A stretch of DNA of 64,000 bases from Escherichia phage vB_EcoM_G2285. The position numbers and the translations under genes are program-made. The notes beneath the pieces were generated by a model that was not told the DNA's origin, ran no database searches, and saw nothing but the letters and a program-made list of their open reading frames with translations. The stretch is taken from sequence record MK327933.1. The stretch is one strand, 5' to 3'. Shown piece by piece: positions 1,300 through 60,594 of this stretch (position 1 is the stretch's first letter; every line of letters starts with the position of its first letter).

Positions 1300-1940
1300 T
1301 GAATAAACCCGAGTTACTTATTGAAACTTGGGGTCAACCCGGTGAGATTATTGATGGCGTTCCAATGTTGGAATCTCATGATGGAAAAGATTCTGGCTTA
1401 AAACCAGGGCTTTATATAGAAGGTATTTTTCTTCAGGCAGAGGTTGTTAACCGAAATAAGCGTTTATATCCTAAACGCGTTTTGGAAAAAGCAGTAAGTG
1501 ACTATATTAAAGAACAAGTCGCAACCAAACAAGCCCTTGGAGAATTAAACCATCCACCTCGTGCAAATGTTGACCCCATGCAAGCCGCTATCATTATTGA
1601 AGATATGTGGTGGAAAGGAAACGATGTATATGGACGTGCTAGAATTATTGAAGGCGACCATGGTCCCGGCGATAAATTAGCTGCTAATATACGAGCTGGT
1701 TGGATTCCAGGTGTTTCCTCTCGTGGTCTTGGTTCTTTAACCGACACCAATAAAGGGTACCGTATCGTGAACGAAGGATTTAAATTAACCGTCGGCGTAG
1801 ATGCCGTATGGGGACCTTCTGCTCCAGATGCTTGGGTTACTCCTAAACAAATATCAGAATCAGAGAATTCGGTGGAAATCACCAAAAACAGTGCTGATGA
1901 AGCATTTAAAGCTCTCGCAGAGAGTTTAAAAGCATTATAA
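1299..1940 (+). CDS. 21: Prohead core scaffold protein and protease gp21
   Basis: 213 aa (T4 gp21 about 212); synteny between 68 and 22. Confidence 0.85.
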   Translation: MNKPELLIETWGQPGEIIDGVPMLESHDGKDSGLKPGLYIEGIFLQAEVVNRNKRLYPKRVLEKAVSDYIKEQVATKQALGELNHPPRANVDPMQAAIIIEDMWWKGNDVYGRARIIEGDHGPGDKLAANIRAGWIPGVSSRGLGSLTDTNKGYRIVNEGFKLTVGVDAVWGPSAPDAWVTPKQISESENSVEITKNSADEAFKALAESLKAL

Positions 1941-51892: not shown

Positions 51893-54800
51893 ATGGCTAC
51901 ATTAAAACAGATACAATTTAAAAGAAGCAAAGTGGCAGGTGCACGTCCTGCTGCTTCAGTATTAGCCGAAGGTGAATTGGCTATAAACTTAAAAGATAGA
52001 ACACTTTTTACTAAAGATGACCTCGGTAATATTATTAGCCTAGGCTTTGCTAAGGGCGGGGATATTAACGGTAATGTAACCCAAAATGGTGGTTATTTAC
52101 AGAACGGTACATATAATCTCAATGGAAATCAGTTTGTTTATGCAGGAAAATATATTGAATTTTTACCTAAAATAGCTGGTAATGGCGCTTGGGTAAATCA
52201 ACACCTAAATAAAGCTCCTATCTTTACAGATTTAAGTTCAACTACTGCTGTTTCAGAATACCATCCGCTGATTAAACAACGCTATAAAGATGGAACTTTT
52301 TCTGCTGGCACATTAGTAAACGAAGGTAGTTTTAAATTCCATTATATTGATGAAACCGGGACTTCAAAATACTGGACTTTTAATAGAAATGGTAATTTCA
52401 TCGTAGATTCTGGCAATATTGAAGTTCGTACCGGTAATATTTCTGCTTCAGGCAATATTAACTCCGCTAATGGTATTATCACCGGGCCTGAAATTGTTAC
52501 CAAAAATATTAATTTCAGTACAAAAACATTTGTCGCTAACGCCAACATCGGGTATGATTGGGTTTCTTTACCTACCTGGGTTTATAATCCGCCAGCTGAT
52601 GGTTCTGATAATACTACTAACGGTTTAAACTATTTGCGTAAATTGCGTGCATCAAGTGCATCAAGTATTTTCCATGAAATTGCTGATTGTCGAAAAGGCA
52701 AGCCGCAAGAAATTTCTTGGTGGACTGGTGTAGGTCCTTCGTCTTTCCAATGGGCGTTTGATACCTCTGGGCGTATTACCGCAGGTAAATCTATTTCAGT
52801 AGGTCTTCCTGATAACGGGGCAAATGGACGTTATCCTTTAGATTCTGCCATTTCTATTGGTATTGCAATTGGTGATAATGACACCGGTATTAAATGGGTC
52901 CGCGACGGTGTTATTGATTTCATGGCTAACGGTATTTCATCCGCTACCATTTTGAATAACGGTATTAACAGCACTAAGAAATTGATGGTCGGTTATAGCC
53001 GCGATTCTGGTACTACTTGGGATTTTCCTAATAATAATCAGGCAATGTTTACAGCAAGAACTGATGTTGATGGAAATAATAACGGTGATGGACAAACTCA
53101 TATCGGTTATAGCAGCAATGCCAAGATGTATCACTATTTCCGTGGTACAGGTCGTATGGCTGTTGGTATGGCAGAAGGTTTAATTGTTGAGCCAGGTATT
53201 TTAGATATTAAAACTGGTTCAAATTCATTAAATTTACGTGCTGATGGAACTATTTCTTCTATTCAAAGAATTAAATTTGATAACGGGGTACTTCTTACCG
53301 GGGCTAGAGCTGACGGTATTCAACTTGATGCGCCTACATCAGTAGATGGCACTAAAACTATACTGTGGGGTGCTGGTACTCGCGCAGGTCAGAATAAAAA
53401 CTATATATCTATTAAAGCGTGGGGTAATTCATTTAATGCCACTGGTGATAAATCTCGTGAAACCGTTTTTGAAGTATCAGATTCACAAGGTTACCATTTT
53501 TATTCTCAGCGAGTTGCTCCTGGTGCAGGTTCTACTGTCGGACCTATTCAATTCCGAGTTAATGGCGGTTTATTAACTTCAGGTAGTATTGTTGCTTCCG
53601 GTTCTATTACAACTGAATCTTCTTTGAGTGTTAATAATGGCATGTCAGTAAACGGCCAAGCTAAATTCGGCGGAACAGCAAACGCATTGAGAATTTGGAA
53701 CGCTGAATATGGCGCTATTTTCCGTCGTTCAGAAACAGCATTGCACATTATTCCTACCCTTAAAGACCAAGGAGAAAATGGTGAAATAGGTAATCTTCGT
53801 CCATTGAGCATCGCACTTCATAACGGTATGGTACAAATGCGTCATTCTGTCACGTTAGGCGATGATGGTAGAGGTGGCAATATGATTACTGTGGACAACG
53901 ATAACAAACGTGTTGTTGTTGCTAGTAATAGTCGTATTTCTCCTAATTACCGTATGCAGATAGGACATTCCGCTTATATTGATGCTGAATGTACTAATAC
54001 TGTTCGACCGGCTGGTGCAGGTTCATTTGCTTCCCAGAATAATGAAGACGTTCGTGCCCCGTTCTATATGAATATTGATAGAACAGATACAAGCGCTTAT
54101 GTTCCTATTGTGAAACAAAGATACGTTCAAAATAATAGTTGTTATTCTATTGGTACTTTAATTAATGGTGGTAACTTTAGAGTTCATTATCATGAAGGTG
54201 GAGACGGTGGTTCGACTGGTGCTGTTATAAAGGATCATGGATGGGAATTTAATAAAAACGGTGATTTTTATTCTCCTGGTAAATTAGGCGCTGGTAATGT
54301 TCGTATTGGTACTGATGGTAACATCACTGGCGGCACTGGTAATTTTGCTAACTTGAATACCACAATAAATAACCTTAAGACGGATATTGTGTCGAGTTAC
54401 CCAATTGGTGCTCCGATTCCTTGGCCTACTGATACACCTCCTGACGGTTACGCTATTATGGAAGGTCAGACCTTTGATAAGTCTGCATATCCAAAGTTAG
54501 CTGTTGCATATCCTAGCGGTGTTATTCCAGATATGCGCGGGCAAACTATCAAGGGTAAACCTAGTGGACGAGCCGTGTTAAGTGCAGAAGCTGATGGTAT
54601 TAAGTCTCATAGCCATAGTGCATCTGCTTCAAGTACTGACTTAGGCACTAAAACCACATCGTCGTTTGATTACGGCACTAAAACCACGAATAACACCGGG
54701 GCGCATACGCACAGTGTGAGCGGTACAGCCGCAAGTGCCGGAAACCATACTCATAGTGTCACAGGCGCATCAGCAGAAAGACGGTACACACCAAATGGGT

Positions 54801-55039
54801 CAACACATGAGGTAGTGGCTGCGGTCAGGGTGAATACAAGTGCTGCAGGAGCGCACACTCATAGTGTCAGCGGCACAGCTGCATCTGCAGGTGCTCACGC
54901 ACATACTGTCGGTATTGGTGCTCATACGCACTCTGTTGCGATTGGCTCACATGGACACACCATCACCGTTAACGCTGCTGGTAACGCGGAAAACACGGTT
55001 AAAAACATTGCTTTTAACTATATCGTTCGTTTAGCATAA
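51893..55039 (+). CDS. 37: Long tail fibre distal subunit gp37 (receptor-binding tip)
   Basis: 1048 aa; conserved N-terminus; C-terminal His-rich HxH repeat block. Confidence 0.9.
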
Positions 55040-55044
55040 GGAGA

Positions 55045-55058
55045 GGGGCTTCGGCCCC
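55045..55058 (+). terminator. Intrinsic terminator after gene 37
   Basis: ggggc-ttcg-gcccc followed by ttttt. Confidence 0.7.
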
Positions 55059-55068
55059 TTTTTATAAT

Positions 55069-55620
55069 ATGAAACTCTATCACTATTATTTTGACACTAA
55101 AGAATTTTACAAAGAAGAAAATTATAAACCATTAAAAGGCGTAGGATTTCCGGCTCATTCGACACCAAAAAAACCTTTAGACCCTAAAGAAGGCTATGCT
55201 GTTTTATTTGATGAACGCGAACAAGAATGGGTATATGTTGAAGACCATCGTGGAAAAACAGTATGGACTTATGATAAGCAAAAAATTGTTATTGACACTC
55301 CGGGTGCTCTTCAAAATGTTACTACGGAAGAACCTGGTGAATTTGACATTTGGACCGACGACGGGTGGAAGGAAGATGAAGCATATAAACGCGTAGTTCA
55401 ACGTGATAAGAAAATTCATGAACTCTATAAATTATTCAGTGTTTTAAGTTCTCTTATTGACGCAGAGGTTGCTAATAGAGAAGAAAAGCGAAAATTTAAA
55501 GAGCTCAAAAAATTCTTTGCCCTTTTAGAAAAACACGAACATCTTGGCGGTGAATTCCCTAAATTCCCTGACCTTGAAAACAAATCTATTGTCAAAACGA
55601 TTATAAATATCTTTAAGTAA
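55069..55620 (+). CDS. 38: Tail fibre assembly chaperone gp38 (T4 type)
   Basis: 183 aa (T4 gp38 183). Confidence 0.85.
   Translation: MKLYHYYFDTKEFYKEENYKPLKGVGFPAHSTPKKPLDPKEGYAVLFDEREQEWVYVEDHRGKTVWTYDKQKIVIDTPGALQNVTTEEPGEFDIWTDDGWKEDEAYKRVVQRDKKIHELYKLFSVLSSLIDAEVANREEKRKFKELKKFFALLEKHEHLGGEFPKFPDLENKSIVKTIINIFK
55602..55609 (+). promoter_or_regulatory. Late promoter TATAAATA for holin t
   Basis: Exact motif inside the 3' end of gene 38, 20 nt upstream of t. Confidence 0.55.
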
Positions 55621-55629
55621 GGAGGTATT

Positions 55630-56289
55630 ATGGCAACACCAAAAGTATCATTTTCGCCTAGTGATATTCTATTTGGGTTGCTAGATCGTATTTTCAAAGA
55701 TAACGCTACTGGAAAGGTTTTAATGTCCCGAGTAGCGGTAATTATTCTTTTGTTCCTAATGGCACTAATATGGTACAAAGGAAGTATTTTGCTGGATTAT
55801 TATGTAAGAGCTAAGTATGATACTTATACTGAAATAATCCAAAAAGAACGAGCTTTACGTTTTGAATCTGCGGCTCTAGAACAACTGCAAATAGTTCATA
55901 TCTCATCTGGTGCAGATTTTAGTGCTGTGTATTCTTTCAGACCTAAAAACTTAAATTATTTTGTCGACCTTATAGCTTATGAAGGCAAACTACCTAGCAC
56001 AATTTCTGAAAAGTCCCTTGGCGGATTCCCAGTGGATAAAACGGCCAATGAATATATAATTCATTTAAGTGGCCGTCATTTCTCATCTAAATCTGAATTT
56101 GCATTTTTGCCTACAAAATCTAAGACTGCCGAACTTTCTTATATGTATAGTTGTCCATACTTTAATTTGGATAACATCTATGCCGGAACTGTGACGATGT
56201 ATTGGTATAAGGGGAGTAATATACTTGAGGAAGATCGCTTAGCGGCTATATGCAACCAAGCGATCCGAATACTAGGAAGGGCTAAATAA
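55630..56289 (+). CDS. t: Holin T
   Basis: 219 aa (T4 T 218); single N-terminal TM helix and large periplasmic domain. Confidence 0.9.
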   Translation: MATPKVSFSPSDILFGLLDRIFKDNATGKVLMSRVAVIILLFLMALIWYKGSILLDYYVRAKYDTYTEIIQKERALRFESAALEQLQIVHISSGADFSAVYSFRPKNLNYFVDLIAYEGKLPSTISEKSLGGFPVDKTANEYIIHLSGRHFSSKSEFAFLPTKSKTAELSYMYSCPYFNLDNIYAGTVTMYWYKGSNILEEDRLAAICNQAIRILGRAK

Positions 56290-56562
56290 TTAGTTGTTAG
56301 AATACATCGCTAAATGACGATAAATATTTTCAAAACCTTCATTGAATTCACTAATCAGTGTTTTCTTTTCTTCGGCAGTTAAATTTGTAATTAGTTTTCT
56401 GAACGAATTCTGATTTAGCTGCCGACCATCTTTTTTAATTCCAATCTCATTCAAGAATCCGATGAAACTTGCTCGGTCTTCAACAATATCTTCCCTAGAG
56501 AATTTAATCAAAATAGAAGCAATAGTAATAATTTCACGTACGATTTCAATATCTTTATTCAT
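56290..56562 (-). CDS. asiA: Anti-sigma-70 factor AsiA
   Basis: 90 aa; reads as T4 AsiA. Confidence 0.9.
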   Translation of the reverse strand: MNKDIEIVREIITIASILIKFSREDIVEDRASFIGFLNEIGIKKDGRQLNQNSFRKLITNLTAEEKKTLISEFNEGFENIYRHLAMYSNN

Positions 56563-56608
56563 AACGTTTTATTCATTCCACTTAGTTGATATGGATATAG
56601 TACCATTA

Positions 56609-56824
56609 TCAGTGTTGATTGTAAACAGCTTTTTCTACGCTTTTAACGTAATTGGTATAGTCTTCCTGTTCGTACGAGTGTAAGGCTAAGAACAGAGCTA
56701 ATAGTTCATTATAGACTAAAGCCTCACGCTCACGTTCGGCCTCTACTACGTTCTGAAGATTATGGCTCATATTGTTCCTTATAACTATCAATGTAGTCCT
56801 GTATGTCAAAGAATGATATTTCAT
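56609..56824 (-). CDS. Hypothetical protein (start uncertain)
   Basis: 71-aa ORF overlapping the next ORF. Confidence 0.3.
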   Translation of the reverse strand: MKYHSLTYRTTLIVIRNNMSHNLQNVVEAEREREALVYNELLALFLALHSYEQEDYTNYVKSVEKAVYNQH

Positions 56825-57146
56825 ATTCTAGGACATTAAGAGCCCGTTCTTCAGTATAGTCAGAACCAAAGACGATAGTGATTTCACCGGGTTTAGAATG
56901 ACTGAAATCAACACTAAACTCAAGTCGAGAGCAGACTTCATCTTCCATATCTATGATAACACTACGATACACTTCTCGGTTAATCTGATAAAGCTCTGCA
57001 AGTTCTTCACAACGAATAACAAGTTCAGTGGCAGGATTTTCTTTGATTTTAGTAAGCATAGTCTTTACCCTTATGTTTTTGTTTACGTTTAGATTGAAGT
57101 TCTGATTTCTTCTTGTCCTTATGGACGGAAGCCTTATTGAAATCAT
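56760..57146 (-). CDS. Hypothetical protein (real start probably internal, near 57059)
   Basis: 128-aa ORF. Confidence 0.4.
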   Translation of the reverse strand: MISIRLPSIRTRRNQNFNLNVNKNIRVKTMLTKIKENPATELVIRCEELAELYQINREVYRSVIIDMEDEVCSRLEFSVDFSHSKPGEITIVFGSDYTEERALNVLEYEISFFDIQDYIDSYKEQYEP

Positions 57147-57361
57147 GTTTTGCTACAAGATTGTTCATAATGCTTTATAACCTCGTTTAAACATTTACTA
57201 GTGAAAGAAAACTTTTTAGCCACAGAACATTCGATAATGTGCTCTTTCAAATCTTTAGAGTCGGTATATCCCATCTCAGTAATAAAGTGGCGAATTAAAG
57301 CTTTATTCTTATCATTAACAGAATTAAAATAATCTGCTTTAGAATCAATTATTCTCATCAT
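57143..57361 (-). CDS. Hypothetical protein
   Basis: 72-aa ORF. Confidence 0.4.
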   Translation of the reverse strand: MMRIIDSKADYFNSVNDKNKALIRHFITEMGYTDSKDLKEHIIECSVAKKFSFTSKCLNEVIKHYEQSCSKT

Positions 57362-57626
57362 CTAATTTCCTTAATTGATATTGCAACGAGCTAATAATTT
57401 CTTCGTTCATTTTAATATACATGTCACGCAAGAAAGGTTTTAACCCATCACGAATAATTGCTAACGTATCACCTTTACATAAATTAACCAAATAAGGATG
57501 GTCTAAAGCGTCCCAACCAGGCTGATTAGCATACATACCATAGTTTTCTTCCATCATATGATTAAGACGTTTGATATCTTGGATACGTGATTCAATAGCA
57601 TCTTTCTGGAGTTGTTTAATATTCAT
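57345..57626 (-). CDS. Hypothetical early protein; size and position compatible with Arn but unverified
   Basis: 93 aa in the asiA-motA island; assignment is weak inference. Confidence 0.3.
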   Translation of the reverse strand: MNIKQLQKDAIESRIQDIKRLNHMMEENYGMYANQPGWDALDHPYLVNLCKGDTLAIIRDGLKPFLRDMYIKMNEEIISSLQYQLRKLDDENN

Positions 57627-58087
57627 TAATAAAGGTCCTCTGAATAAAGTTCTTTCTCACTTCCGCCACGTTCAATACGTACCTGTCCAGCATACGTTGC
57701 AATAATCATTGCTTCTTCGCGAGTCCAGTAATTAGAGTATTGGTCGATAAAGCCTTGGTCGTCACCACAAACTTGTTGTGAGACTAATTGAGGACCAACT
57801 ATATCAAGTACTTCAGCCATATCTTTAGAGTAATGACGAACTCCAGGAATAACCAGAGTTCCACCACTCTTCAATTTAAACCTATTAGCTGCACATACTA
57901 TAACACGTTGAACTTTTTGGTCATTATTCCAATAGCATGTTTGCCAACAGATTTCAGGAACTTCATTCATTATATCATCAGCAGAATAATTATAACCGTA
58001 GGACTGGAATTTTTCTGCTAGACTTTCAGGAGTCTCACGAGACAAGGCCAAATCTAATAGCTCTAAACGTTCTTTAAATGATTTCAT
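57626..58087 (-). CDS. Hypothetical protein, 153 aa
   Basis: Coupled ORF with several cysteines; no motif recognised. Confidence 0.5.
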
Positions 58088-58413
58088 TTAAACCATTCCT
58101 TAATACGTTGCCAAATAGATTTTTGTGCTTGTTTATTTACACCAATCGAACGAATAACCGGTTGTGACTGCTGATATTCTTTATAATCTTCTTTATAGAT
58201 TTCGTAAGCTGCATCAACAAATGAACTGATCGCTGCCATGTAGTTTTTACGAAGGCCGAATGGTGCGTCATTATTTTCACGAATAACCATATATTGGCCT
58301 GCTTTAATCTTTACAATTGTCCCTAAATAAGCCCCGTGGTACCAAATATCCCATCCTTCCTGAGTAGGTTCTGCACATTTACGAAGTTCGTTAATAATAT
58401 TCAGCTTATTCAT
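58084..58413 (-). CDS. Hypothetical protein (motA.1 position)
   Basis: 109-aa ORF. Confidence 0.5.
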
Positions 58414-58423
58414 TATGTATTCC

Positions 58424-59056
58424 TCACAGTACGTTAGTTACAAGGGTAATGATTTCTTTGGACACATTAGGGAAGTCAATGTAAGTATATTTACCACCGA
58501 TCTTAATCTTAACATCATTTTCAAGAGAAGTAAACAGCTTTGATTCAGTTTCTGACATGTTATATGCAAATATTCTAAGACAACCATCTCGACGAATTTC
58601 GATCTGACGAATACCTAGAACTCGTTTTGCAAATCGAACTTCCAAGTTACTACGGTTTTCACCAATTTCTTTAACTTCAACTTTATCTTTAATATTTTCA
58701 AAAACAAAGTTTGCTAGTTCATGCATTTCAGGAGTAACTCCACGTGCTTTTCTAGTGTTACGTTTCTGAAGAAGTTCTGGAGCATTTTCTTGGGCAAAGA
58801 GGTCCGCCGCTTTTTGGATAATATCCATTGCTTCGCCTGTTGCTATAAGTCCATCACCGGATTTTTCGACTAAACCTTTCTTAATCAATACACCAATGTT
58901 AGAGTTAACAACCGATGCATTGTATTCCGCTTCCAGAGCTTCACGGACATTGGCAGCAGTAGTGAAGTTGTTCTTAATGATATAAACCATTATTGCAGCA
59001 GTTTTTTCATTCAGAGCGTTTTCAGAAGCTTTGATGATGTAAGTAACTTTAGACAT
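58424..59056 (-). CDS. motA: Middle-transcription activator MotA
   Basis: 210 aa (T4 MotA 211); N-terminus MSKVTYIIKAS matches. Confidence 0.9.
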   Translation of the reverse strand: MSKVTYIIKASENALNEKTAAIMVYIIKNNFTTAANVREALEAEYNASVVNSNIGVLIKKGLVEKSGDGLIATGEAMDIIQKAADLFAQENAPELLQKRNTRKARGVTPEMHELANFVFENIKDKVEVKEIGENRSNLEVRFAKRVLGIRQIEIRRDGCLRIFAYNMSETESKLFTSLENDVKIKIGGKYTYIDFPNVSKEIITLVTNVL

Positions 59057-59059
59057 TTT

Positions 59060-59130
59060 ATTTCTCCAATTTGGTTGTTTTGTTTTGATAGGTCTATAAT
59101 ATCATGTTTGAAGCACATGTAAACTGTTTT
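59060..59130 (-). promoter_or_regulatory. T4 early-type promoter upstream of motA
   Basis: Minus strand GTTTACATGTGCTTCAAACATGATATTAT. Confidence 0.55.
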
Positions 59131-59152
59131 GTGAGAAAAAATGCACAAAAAG

Positions 59153-59168
59153 GAACCCGAAGGTTCCT
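59153..59168 (-). terminator. Hairpin terminator after the gene 52 unit
   Basis: ggaacc-cgaa-ggttcc flanked by A-run and T-run. Confidence 0.6.
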
Positions 59169-59272
59169 TACTTTTTAAAGTGGGCTGCTATTAAACCTAT
59201 AGCTAAGCCTGTCGCCAGGCCTAGAATAACAGCAAAGATACATAGTAACAAGAACTCGACTCCAAGGCTCAT
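59168..59272 (-). CDS. Small hydrophobic peptide, 34 aa (not in the track)
   Basis: Hand translation MSLGVEFLLLCIFAVILGLATGLAIGLIAAHFKK; ATG overlaps the gene 52 stop (ATGA). Confidence 0.4.
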   Translation of the reverse strand: MSLGVEFLLLCIFAVILGLATGLAIGLIAAHFKK

Positions 59273-60594
59273 AGAGCCTCCAAATCTTTAACATACTCAG
59301 TTACCACATCAGTAGACTTCCAATACTCATTTTCTTCTTTCTTAGCCTTAGCTTCTTCCGCTAGTTTACGTGCTTCATCGGAAGTGATATGGAAGATGTT
59401 AAGGCCTACCAGTTTATCGACATGTTCTTTATACATTTCGATTTGTGCTAGCTCTTCAGTCAAAGCTTTACGTGTCTTGCCCTGAATCACAATTTCGCCA
59501 CTGATAACTTTTTTGATGAAGTGTGCCTTAGCAAAAGCAAGTTTAAATGCTTTTTCAGATTCAAGGATTTTGTTGTCAATACGTTTCTGAACGTAAGTCT
59601 TACGGACTTCAACAAAATCTTTGATTAAGTCCACTACGTTATCGTAGACCGCTAATTTACCCTTTTCATTAATAACTGTGATGTTTTGTGAACGACGTTC
59701 GATGAGACTGAAATCTTTCATGATTTTTTCATGACGTAGCTCTTCATCATCAGGAAGCGAGTACTCTTTACGGAACTTCACCTTAAACCCAAAGCCGTGT
59801 TCACCACAATCATCTTCCCATGAGATTAGACCTTTGTCTTCCAATGGGTCAAGAACCTTACTCACATACGTTTCACGGTCGAATTTATATGGGATTTCAG
59901 TTATCTGCATTTGAGTGCGAGATGTGAACTTATATGTTCCGTGAATCTCATAACGCCCATCAACTTCATGTACTTCACCACGGAATTCCGGGAATTCAAC
60001 TTTTGGCTTAGTGACATTTTTACCTTGAAGAGCTTGTAATACAGCCTTTTTGACTGATTTAAAACTATGAGGCAGAATATTTGTTGCGTAACCGGTTGCA
60101 ATACCAGATACACCATTCAAAAGAACTGTCGGAATAATAGGAAGATAGAATTTTGGTGGAATGTGTTCTTTATCTTCATGAGCTGGAGCATATTCAGTAT
60201 CTTTATATACGTTATAGAAATTTTTACTTACACGAGCAAAAATATAACGAGATGCTGCAGCTTTTTGGACTGTTCTAGAACCAAAGTTGCCTTGGCCATC
60301 TAACAGTGGATAGTTGTTGTTCCATGTGTTAGCCATCAATGCACCTGCATCTTGTGCAGAAGATTCACCATGGTGATAACCTAAATCTGCAACGCCGCCT
60401 GCAATTGACGCAAGTTTATGAAATTTTTCTTTATTACCACGAGCCAAATCTAACGCACGATGGACCACAAAACGTTGAACCGGCTTAAATCCATCAATCA
60501 TGTTTGGGATTGCACGGTTTTCAACGGTGTACATCGCATATGCTAAGGCTTCGTTATCAATAATACTTTTTAGATTACGAGAATTAAATTGCAT
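59269..60594 (-). CDS. 52: DNA topoisomerase II medium subunit gp52
   Basis: 441 aa (T4 gp52 442); GyrA-like N-terminus with catalytic-Tyr region. Confidence 0.9.
   Translation of the reverse strand: MQFNSRNLKSIIDNEALAYAMYTVENRAIPNMIDGFKPVQRFVVHRALDLARGNKEKFHKLASIAGGVADLGYHHGESSAQDAGALMANTWNNNYPLLDGQGNFGSRTVQKAAASRYIFARVSKNFYNVYKDTEYAPAHEDKEHIPPKFYLPIIPTVLLNGVSGIATGYATNILPHSFKSVKKAVLQALQGKNVTKPKVEFPEFRGEVHEVDGRYEIHGTYKFTSRTQMQITEIPYKFDRETYVSKVLDPLEDKGLISWEDDCGEHGFGFKVKFRKEYSLPDDEELRHEKIMKDFSLIERRSQNITVINEKGKLAVYDNVVDLIKDFVEVRKTYVQKRIDNKILESEKAFKLAFAKAHFIKKVISGEIVIQGKTRKALTEELAQIEMYKEHVDKLVGLNIFHITSDEARKLAEEAKAKKEENEYWKSTDVVTEYVKDLEAL

Follow-up and report, generated by a model that had tools for sequence, protein, structure and literature searches.

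A diverged candidate homologue of Arn, a two-part Arn.3 and an overlooked 39-residue gene in the asiA-motA cluster of Escherichia phage vB_EcoM_G2285

We analysed a stretch of 64,000 nucleotides (nt) of Escherichia phage vB_EcoM_G2285 (record MK327933.1), hereafter the window, and concentrated on the string of small open reading frames (ORFs) between the early genes asiA and motA. In T-even phages this cluster is the home of Arn, the textbook T4 anti-McrBC DNA mimic, and lies between two factors that reprogram the host RNA polymerase; the preliminary description of this DNA had recognised both points correctly. All genes of the cluster are on the minus strand, with motA upstream and asiA downstream, the DNA topoisomerase gene 52 beyond motA and the holin gene t beyond asiA. 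The T4 region bounded by t and gene 52 served as the reference for each ORF, and every one had a T4 counterpart. From motA to asiA the gene order is arn.4, arn.3, arn.2, arn.1, a DUF7230 gene of 39 amino acids (aa), a candidate diverged arn and asiA.1. A segment of 2.9 kb around the cluster was 97-98% identical in DNA to many Escherichia phages, and ATK47, among these close relatives, is classed as a Mosigvirus, the RB69-like genus of T-even phages. The region 56609-58413 is very likely the form that the conserved T-even arn operon takes in Mosigvirus (RB69-type) phages.

The 99-aa ORF at 56760-57059 occupies the slot of T4 arn, between asiA.1 and arn.1/DUF7230. The DUF7230 ORF and the start of asiA.1, which flank this slot, align across T4, Mosigvirus and Dhakavirus. 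Slot, fold, profile links and acidity together mark its product as a predicted, highly diverged remote homologue of T4 Arn. The protein has an isoelectric point (pI) of 4.22, 23 aspartate or glutamate residues out of 99 and a net charge of -14; T4 Arn, at 92 aa, has a pI of 4.55 and a net charge of -9. No templates were used for an AlphaFold2 (AF2) model, whose input alignment consisted of seven sequences, all of them close relatives (76-97% identity) and none a member of the T4 Arn family. The model reached a predicted local distance difference test score (pLDDT) of 82 and a predicted template modelling score (pTM) of 0.69. When this model was compared by Foldseek with 350,542 PDB chains, the top match was T4 Arn itself (3WX4; probability 1.00, template modelling score (TM) 0.70/0.71 over 90 columns), whereas the second-best match reached a TM of only 0.39.

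Profile comparisons pointed in the same direction. The profile of the 99-aa family aligned with T4 Arn by hhalign at P 4.7e-4 over 79 collinear columns, end to end, with a probability of 33%. T4 Arn matched the PHROG of the 99-aa family, phrog_8202, at an expectation value (E) of 0.0054, and a Dhakavirus member of phrog_8202 matched phrog_3151 along almost its entire length (E 3e-5). The latter is the PHROG of Arn, labelled 'inhibitor of MrcBC restriction', whereas phrog_8202 is labelled 'unknown function'. A C-terminal motif, (D/E)(I/L)xDY(I/F)(D/E), is common to the 99-aa protein and T4 Arn, and no T4-type Arn sequence was found elsewhere in the 64,000 nt. The window protein thus resembles T4 Arn (3WX4) in slot, length (99 vs 92 aa), predicted fold (TM 0.70), acidity and the C-terminal DY(I/F)(D/E), but is only 17-18% identical to it, carries a greater negative charge (-14 vs -9) and falls in a separate PHROG. 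In a large protein collection the 99-aa family formed six clusters at >=78% identity. It was found in 178 phage records, mostly named Escherichia, Shigella or Enterobacteria phages and most at >=80% identity. Thirteen of these records fell below 60% identity, three of them at 32-36%, and the one inspected, IME341, is a Dhakavirus. For T4-type Arn there were 485 records, none below 88% identity. In every record inspected the 99-aa homologue was annotated as 'hypothetical protein'.

By analogy with T4 Arn, the 99-aa protein most likely acts as an acidic DNA mimic: a small, strongly negative protein that would bind and block host defence proteins which recognise DNA. The targets reported for T4 Arn are McrBC, H-NS and PUA-Cal-HAD; binding to H-NS is stated in the title of Ho et al. 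2014, as cited in a recent preprint (bioRxiv 10.64898/2026.01.15.699771). According to the same preprint, the single change N70S in T4 Arn abolishes inhibition of PUA-Cal-HAD, which makes strong diversifying pressure on Arn plausible. The target spectrum of the window protein has probably shifted from that of T4 Arn, and such a shift would explain its extreme divergence.

The mechanically called ORFs of the cluster lie at 56609-56824, 56760-57146, 57143-57361, 57345-57626, 57626-58087 and 58084-58413. The preliminary description had listed these as six coupled ORFs between AsiA and MotA; all are present on the minus strand, and Pfam confirmed the two flanking proteins. The count is, however, seven, as the 39-aa ORF at 57049-57168 had been missed, and two of the mechanical calls probably start too far upstream. 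In the 71-aa ORF the PHROG profile begins at residue 19, and in the 128-aa ORF at residue 30. Cluster lengths in the 99-aa family are mostly 99 aa (95-99 aa in five of six clusters, 104 aa in the sixth), and a Shine-Dalgarno-like AAGGG precedes the internal ATG of the 99-aa ORF. The long forms (128 aa and 71 aa) of the two asiA-proximal ORFs were therefore rejected; both most likely start at internal ATGs, giving proteins of 99 aa (56760-57059) and 53 aa (56609-56770). Within the seven-ORF string, stop and start codons overlap at every junction. Following the direction of transcription, the overlaps are 4 nt between the 109-aa and 153-aa ORFs (ATGA), 1 nt between the 153-aa and 93-aa ORFs (TAATG), 17 nt between the 93-aa and 72-aa ORFs, 26 nt between the 72-aa and 39-aa ORFs, and 11 nt both between the 39-aa and 99-aa ORFs and between the 99-aa and 53-aa ORFs. 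The stop of motA and the start of the 109-aa ORF are separated by a 10-nt gap containing GAGGAA.

The 153-aa ORF at 57626-58087 had been described as matching nothing recognisable. Its product is in fact the orthologue of T4 Arn.3, 76% identical over its full length (E 7.6e-90), with a match to phrog_839 at 2.3e-70; precomputed labels place PF26092 on Arn.3 homologues. Arn.3 has two parts, an N-terminal two-helix module followed by a conserved C-terminal core. The core spans approximately residues 45-153 (57629-57955, minus strand) and ends at the C-terminus with LYSEDLY. The core motif AANR..RH..QGFID..R..A..Q..LYSE.LY is present at the C-terminus of the 153-aa ORF. Sixteen residues were invariant in 41 diverse members (A66, A67, N68, R84, H85, Q111, G112, F113, D115, R123, A126, Q135, L147, S149, E150 and Y153). 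The cysteines that had been singled out as a feature of this protein are not among them.

The Arn.3 core is very widespread, with 4975 clusters (50% identity) at E<=1e-3 and 1599 phage records; those inspected included Stephanstirmvirinae, Vequintavirinae, Ackermannviridae and a Phikzvirus jumbo phage. Matches to the core almost always run up to the protein's C-terminus. An AF2 model of Arn.3 reached a pLDDT of 88 and a pTM of 0.82. No solved structure matched the core, and a profile search of PDB sequences gave a best E of 0.44. Among predicted viral structures the fold matched large-polyvalent-protein-associated-domain proteins of uncultured phages (probability 0.99-1.0, 23-26% identity), a class of proteins that has been linked to host conflict (PMC5512222). 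Ten long proteins with the Arn.3 domain, searched against Pfam and PHROGs, revealed no informative fusion partner. In two genera of Stephanstirmvirinae, genes for a metallophosphoesterase and an RNA ligase are translationally coupled to that of the core (L009 1480-3321; L011 1980-3824), and by analogy with these neighbours the core may have a role in RNA end-processing or repair. Its neighbour is topoisomerase II in a Kuttervirus and a GTP pyrophosphokinase in the Phikzvirus (phiKZ-like) phage.

The N-terminal module, residues 1-30 (57998-58087, minus strand), matched a hidden Markov model (HMM) of PADLOC, PD-T4-9_B, which has 77 positions and through which all comparison of Arn.3 with CmdA was made. 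Positions 1-30 of the HMM were matched at E 1.9e-7, and nine of ten other Arn.3 N-termini also matched, the best at 1.2e-9; the diverged N-terminus of T4 Arn.3 gave the weakest match (0.0026). The module is confined to E. coli-type T-evens, and in the model of Arn.3 it forms two N-terminal helices (H4-8 and H20-29). PD-T4-9 is CmdTAC, a toxin-antitoxin-chaperone defence system whose proteins are RCP66309, RCP66310 and RCP66311 in gene order, and from this order we infer that PD-T4-9_B is the antitoxin CmdA. CmdA consists of a pair of N-terminal helices and an unstructured tail (PMC11618068). Arn.3 and CmdA would thus be alike in their first ~30 residues and in the N-terminal helix pair. By contrast, HMM positions 32-77 are unmatched in Arn.3, which has neither the unstructured chaperone-addiction tail nor the LAA degron but continues as an unrelated folded domain of 110 aa ending in SEDLY. 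The gene contexts differ as well, as the gene of CmdA is bordered by that of an ADP-ribosyltransferase toxin on one side and that of a SecB-like chaperone on the other, whereas Arn.3 lies between arn.4 and arn.2; neither of these neighbours had a PADLOC match at E<=1e-3 (weak matches were to REase_II, 0.0017, and Hp1, 0.0021, respectively). As judged by sequence, Arn.3 is not a CmdA, and its N-terminus suggests that the phage captured part of an antitoxin.

A precedent for an antitoxin-derived protein in a lytic T-even phage is AdfN (T4 gp30.3), an orphan antitoxin-like counter-defence protein directed against an ADP-ribosyltransferase toxin-antitoxin defence (PMC11257639). AdfN is, however, a whole NADAR enzyme homologous to DarG1, whereas Arn.3 would share just a short, presumably toxin-binding module with CmdA. 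On this footing Arn.3 would combine a module like PD-T4-9_B with a very widespread domain bearing polar invariant residues. It could then be a counter-defence fusion in which captured CmdA toxin-binding helices, joined to the core, bring the protein to CmdT-like mRNA ADP-ribosyltransferases, so that it neutralises these enzymes or reverses the damage they do to RNA; we consider this improbable as it stands. In such a fusion the core would contribute a fold unlike any in solved structures, polar residues that never vary and a C-terminus that must stay free, and the phosphoesterase and RNA ligase neighbours hint at an RNA-directed activity. A simple protective role is countered by the finding that CmdTAC restricts 10 of 12 BASEL Tevenvirinae, by 100- to 100,000-fold, and by Bas35, a phage that escapes CmdTAC with an Arn.3 N-terminus like that of the window. 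A correlation of the Arn.3 N-terminus with escape was also considered and set aside as uninformative, as Bas35 and Bas38 are the sole escapers of the 12; the Mosigvirus members Bas45-47 are therefore presumably restricted.

The seventh ORF (57049-57168, minus strand) encodes a very basic peptide of 39 aa (MNNLVAKHDFNKASVHKDKKKSELQSKRKQKHKGKDYAY). It overlaps the 3' end of arn.1 by 26 nt in another frame and the 5' end of the Arn-homologue gene by 11 nt. It scored 49.3 bits on Pfam DUF7230 (PF23876), against a cut-off of 27, and matched phrog_1359 over its full length at 3.8e-22. In an alignment of the window, T4 and Dhakavirus, the ~110 nt just upstream of the arn start are the best conserved DNA of the cluster. 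Differences between window and T4 within the ORF fell 6/5/17 at codon positions 1/2/3; 14 codon changes were synonymous and 8 non-synonymous. These comparisons show a real coding gene under purifying selection. It was found in ~1485 phage records, including Straboviridae of Vibrio, Aeromonas and Klebsiella, and in the phages inspected it lies in the equivalent early region. In T4 the ORF is intact (locus L002 ~1780-1899, minus strand) but absent from the annotation of NC_000866; Aeromonas phage 31.2 and BASEL phage WilhelmHis likewise lack an annotation for it. An ArfA-like identity was considered and rejected: comparison with the E. coli ArfA sequence gave an hhalign P of 0.34 over 8 columns, a profile search of PDB sequences returned no ArfA chain, and there was no Pfam ArfA match at E<=10. 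A literature search on DUF7230 found no paper.

The remaining genes form a conserved backbone. The arn.4 orthologue (58084-58413, minus strand) encodes a basic protein of 109 aa (pI 9.2; phrog_1594, 1.1e-52) that is 75% identical to T4 Arn.4 over residues 42-109, the 68 residues annotated in T4. Of 1003 phage records with arn.4, 994 covered >=80% of the 109-aa query, so the 68-aa annotation of T4 is the exception. T4 annotates the C-terminal 68 aa alone and shows a 133-nt gap after motA (T4 locus L002 3035-3167; window 58290-58413). The short form may be either a T4-specific truncation or frameshift, or an annotation error. The 93-aa ORF (57345-57626, minus strand) is the orthologue of arn.2, with 41% identity to T4 Arn.2 (E 3.5e-21) and a match to phrog_1844 at 1e-40; arn.2 occurs in 942 phage records. 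The full-length arn.1 orthologue, 72 aa (57143-57361, minus strand; phrog_4452, 1.2e-39), is 76% identical to a TTG-initiated 72-aa ORF of T4, whose annotated Arn.1 is the C-terminal 43 aa of that ORF. The start codon is ATG in the window vs TTG in T4, and 800 of 806 records cover >=80% of the query. Adjoining asiA, the asiA.1-like ORF of 53 aa (56609-56770, minus strand) matched phrog_5245 at 2.8e-30 from residue 19 of the long ORF. Similarity to T4 AsiA.1 is limited to the N-terminus (E 0.002), where 50% of the first 20 residues are identical; T4 AsiA.1 itself matches phrog_5245 at 2.6e-4 over residues 1-28.

PDB sequence searches with the 99-, 153-, 93-, 109- and 72-aa ORFs found no relatives, and Pfam, NCBIfam and PADLOC scans of all ORFs gave nothing useful except the PD-T4-9_B match. 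Weak library matches to DUF2145, DUF4276, Hp1, REase_II and MphB were judged to be chance. Y16Q of T4 (Sequestin, 64 aa), which came up in the literature search, is a different T4 protein unrelated to the cluster. The name 'anti-restriction nuclease' sits on arn.1 (PHROG 4452), and many GenBank records extend it to arn.2, arn.3 and arn.4, apparently with no basis but the gene names. In a T2 preprint of June 2026 the functions of arn.1 to arn.4 are given as unknown and Arn as the sole product with a known function (bioRxiv 10.64898/2026.06.19.733364), in agreement with the preliminary description, which had called the ORFs of the cluster only weakly assignable. That description had also staked its anti-defence proposal on the six ORFs not all being orthologous to characterised T4 proteins: all six are orthologous to T4 ORFs, of which Arn alone is characterised.

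Of the flanking genes, motA (58424-59056, minus strand) is the first of the string and was identified by Pfam MotA_activ (1.1e-39) and MotCF (3.2e-8), with 51% identity to T4 MotA; asiA (56290-56562, minus strand) matched Pfam AsiA at 2.4e-32 and is 73% identical to T4 AsiA. Further out, G+C content peaks at 0.47-0.52 over 54450-55050, against a background of ~0.35. The peak lies just upstream of a 183-aa ORF (55069-55620) that matches by position a phiD1 gene annotated 'tail fiber assembly', and thus presumably falls inside a distal tail-fibre or adhesin gene.

Promoter signals were sought across the cluster. The best sigma-70-like candidate lies upstream of motA at 59096-59123 (minus strand), with TTTACA, a 16-nt spacer, TATTAT and an extended -10 TG (10 of 12 matches). 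Inside the cluster there were 7 sigma-70-like sites vs 11.2 expected from shuffled sequence, and no MotA-box middle-promoter consensus was found in 56200-59400. Over the whole window that consensus (TGCTTNA, 11-13 nt, TANNNT) occurred 15 times vs 3.8 expected, 14 times on the minus strand. With no internal promoter signal, co-transcription with motA is the simplest reading, and the cluster is probably expressed together with motA from the early promoter, which would make it seven translationally coupled ORFs on one early transcript. In T2, arn.4-arn.3-arn.2-arn.1-arn form one transcript (bioRxiv 10.64898/2026.06.19.733364).

The 70-nt arn.2-arn.1 'intergenic region' of the T2 study of ArcZ and RNase E corresponds to the N-terminal coding part of the 72-aa Arn.1 (window 57330-57400, minus strand; T4 L002 2007-2093, minus strand). 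At the 3' end of arn.2, CCAGGGAAAT of T4 reads ATGAGAATAA at the homologous position of the window and is thus not conserved. CCAGGGAAAT is probably the ArcZ pairing site; if it is, ArcZ control may not apply to Mosigvirus. Pairing with ArcZ has been reported for T2 at the 3' end of arn.2.

Compared with the arn operon of T4 and T2, the window has the same gene order, strand and flanks, with Arn.4, Arn.3 and Arn.1 75-76% identical and Arn.2 41% identical. By contrast, divergence has left arn and asiA.1 barely recognisable by sequence, a 17-nt overlap of arn.2 and arn.1 takes the place of an annotated intergenic region, and arn.4 and arn.1 encode 109 and 72 aa against the annotated 68 and 43 aa in T4. 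The cluster had been called a hyperplastic island; the sequences describe instead a conserved operon whose strong divergence is confined to arn and asiA.1. True insertions were seen only between arn.4 and arn.3, as occasional small ORFs: a 51-aa ORF (phrog_15636) in Bas35 (L008 1109-1264) and a 112-aa ORF (phrog_14178) in IME341 (L003 1307-1645). Yersinia phage phiD1, a Tequatrovirus, carries a complete Mosigvirus-type cassette (NC_027353.1 157470-161360) with the 93-aa arn.2, the 99-aa Arn homologue and the 53-aa asiA.1, indicating that the whole motA-asiA module has been exchanged between genera.

Which ORF, if any, represents Arn could be answered differently. The preliminary description had put forward the 93-aa ORF at 57345-57626 as the anti-McrBC DNA mimic, and its size (93 vs 92 aa) and location inside the asiA-motA cluster do agree with this. 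It is, however, clearly related to Arn.2 by its 41% identity, follows arn.3, belongs to phrog_1844 and not to 3151, and is less acidic than Arn (pI 5.3 vs 4.55); its best match to T4 Arn covers 7 residues at E 21. An identity with Arn is therefore hardly credible. A stronger challenge is that non-homologous replacement put the gene of an unrelated acidic protein in the place of arn, which would make the 99-aa ORF an analogue or something else entirely and the fold match an AlphaFold artefact. Accessory slots of T-even phages do swap their contents, and the phiD1 cassette shows that genera recombine here. Several results likewise weigh against homology or against what we build on it. Pairwise BLASTP of the 99-aa ORF and T4 Arn gave no significant similarity (18% identity, E 0.47), the hhalign probability was just 33%, and the window protein had no match to phrog_3151 at E<=0.01. 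The AF2 model came from a shallow alignment, and 3WX4 is in the AlphaFold training data. Dimerisation, DNA-like charge spacing and McrBC binding are hypothetical for this protein, and Mosigvirus DNA carries arabinosyl-hydroxymethylcytosine, not glucosyl-hydroxymethylcytosine (PMC8594841), so the relevant restriction enzymes may differ. Co-transcription with motA, finally, is read from the absence of consensus promoters alone. Replacement nevertheless appears quite unlikely to us. Three independent signals converge on one family, as T4 Arn is the top structural match, the profile alignment is collinear and full-length, and a Dhakavirus member bridges both PHROGs; in addition, length, order of secondary structure and the C-terminal (D/E)(I/L)xDY(I/F)(D/E) motif are shared.

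A further account concerns the cluster as a whole, which could serve host takeover by tuning the nucleoid and transcription beside AsiA and MotA, with H-NS binding as one possible route. Its two flanking genes, with which it is probably co-transcribed, encode factors that reprogram RNA polymerase, T4 Arn is reported to bind H-NS (in the title of the Ho et al. study), and the backbone genes show a strong conservation that is uncommon among anti-defence genes. Against this, a T4 CRISPRi-ART screen scored frd.2 as Fit and no other T4 gene of unknown function, and the arn genes are not named in the main text of that paper (PMC11879866). By inference arn.1 to arn.4 are dispensable in a laboratory host, which fits an accessory role. 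Moreover, Arn.3 carries a module homologous to an antitoxin of a defence system, and an Arn.3-like fold occurs inside large-polyvalent-protein-associated proteins, the class tied to host conflict (PMC5512222). Host takeover thus seems to us unlikely, though somewhat less so than replacement of arn. We favour a conserved operon that includes a remote Arn homologue. Beyond the established orthology, synteny, fold similarity, conservation and coding status of the seventh ORF, an anti-defence function of this homologue appears well grounded by homology, and an anti-defence role for the other genes is plausible and a reasonable hypothesis.

The operon itself was already known and had been correctly located in the preliminary description. 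New are an Arn homologue that had escaped recognition, a widely conserved 39-aa gene that had been overlooked, the division of Arn.3 into two parts and the lack of a solved structure with the fold of its core. For annotation, the label 'anti-restriction nuclease' sits on arn.1 to arn.4 in many GenBank records whilst the real homologue is unlabelled, and the 39-aa gene is missing from the T4 reference inside a region under study as RNA regulatory sequence. The match between the Arn.3 N-terminus and PD-T4-9_B gives a tangible starting point for work on a domain that ranks among the most widespread of those still uncharacterised in large virulent phages. The Arn proteins of RB69-type phages and Dhakavirus would provide a natural series of variants in which to study how a DNA mimic is retargeted.

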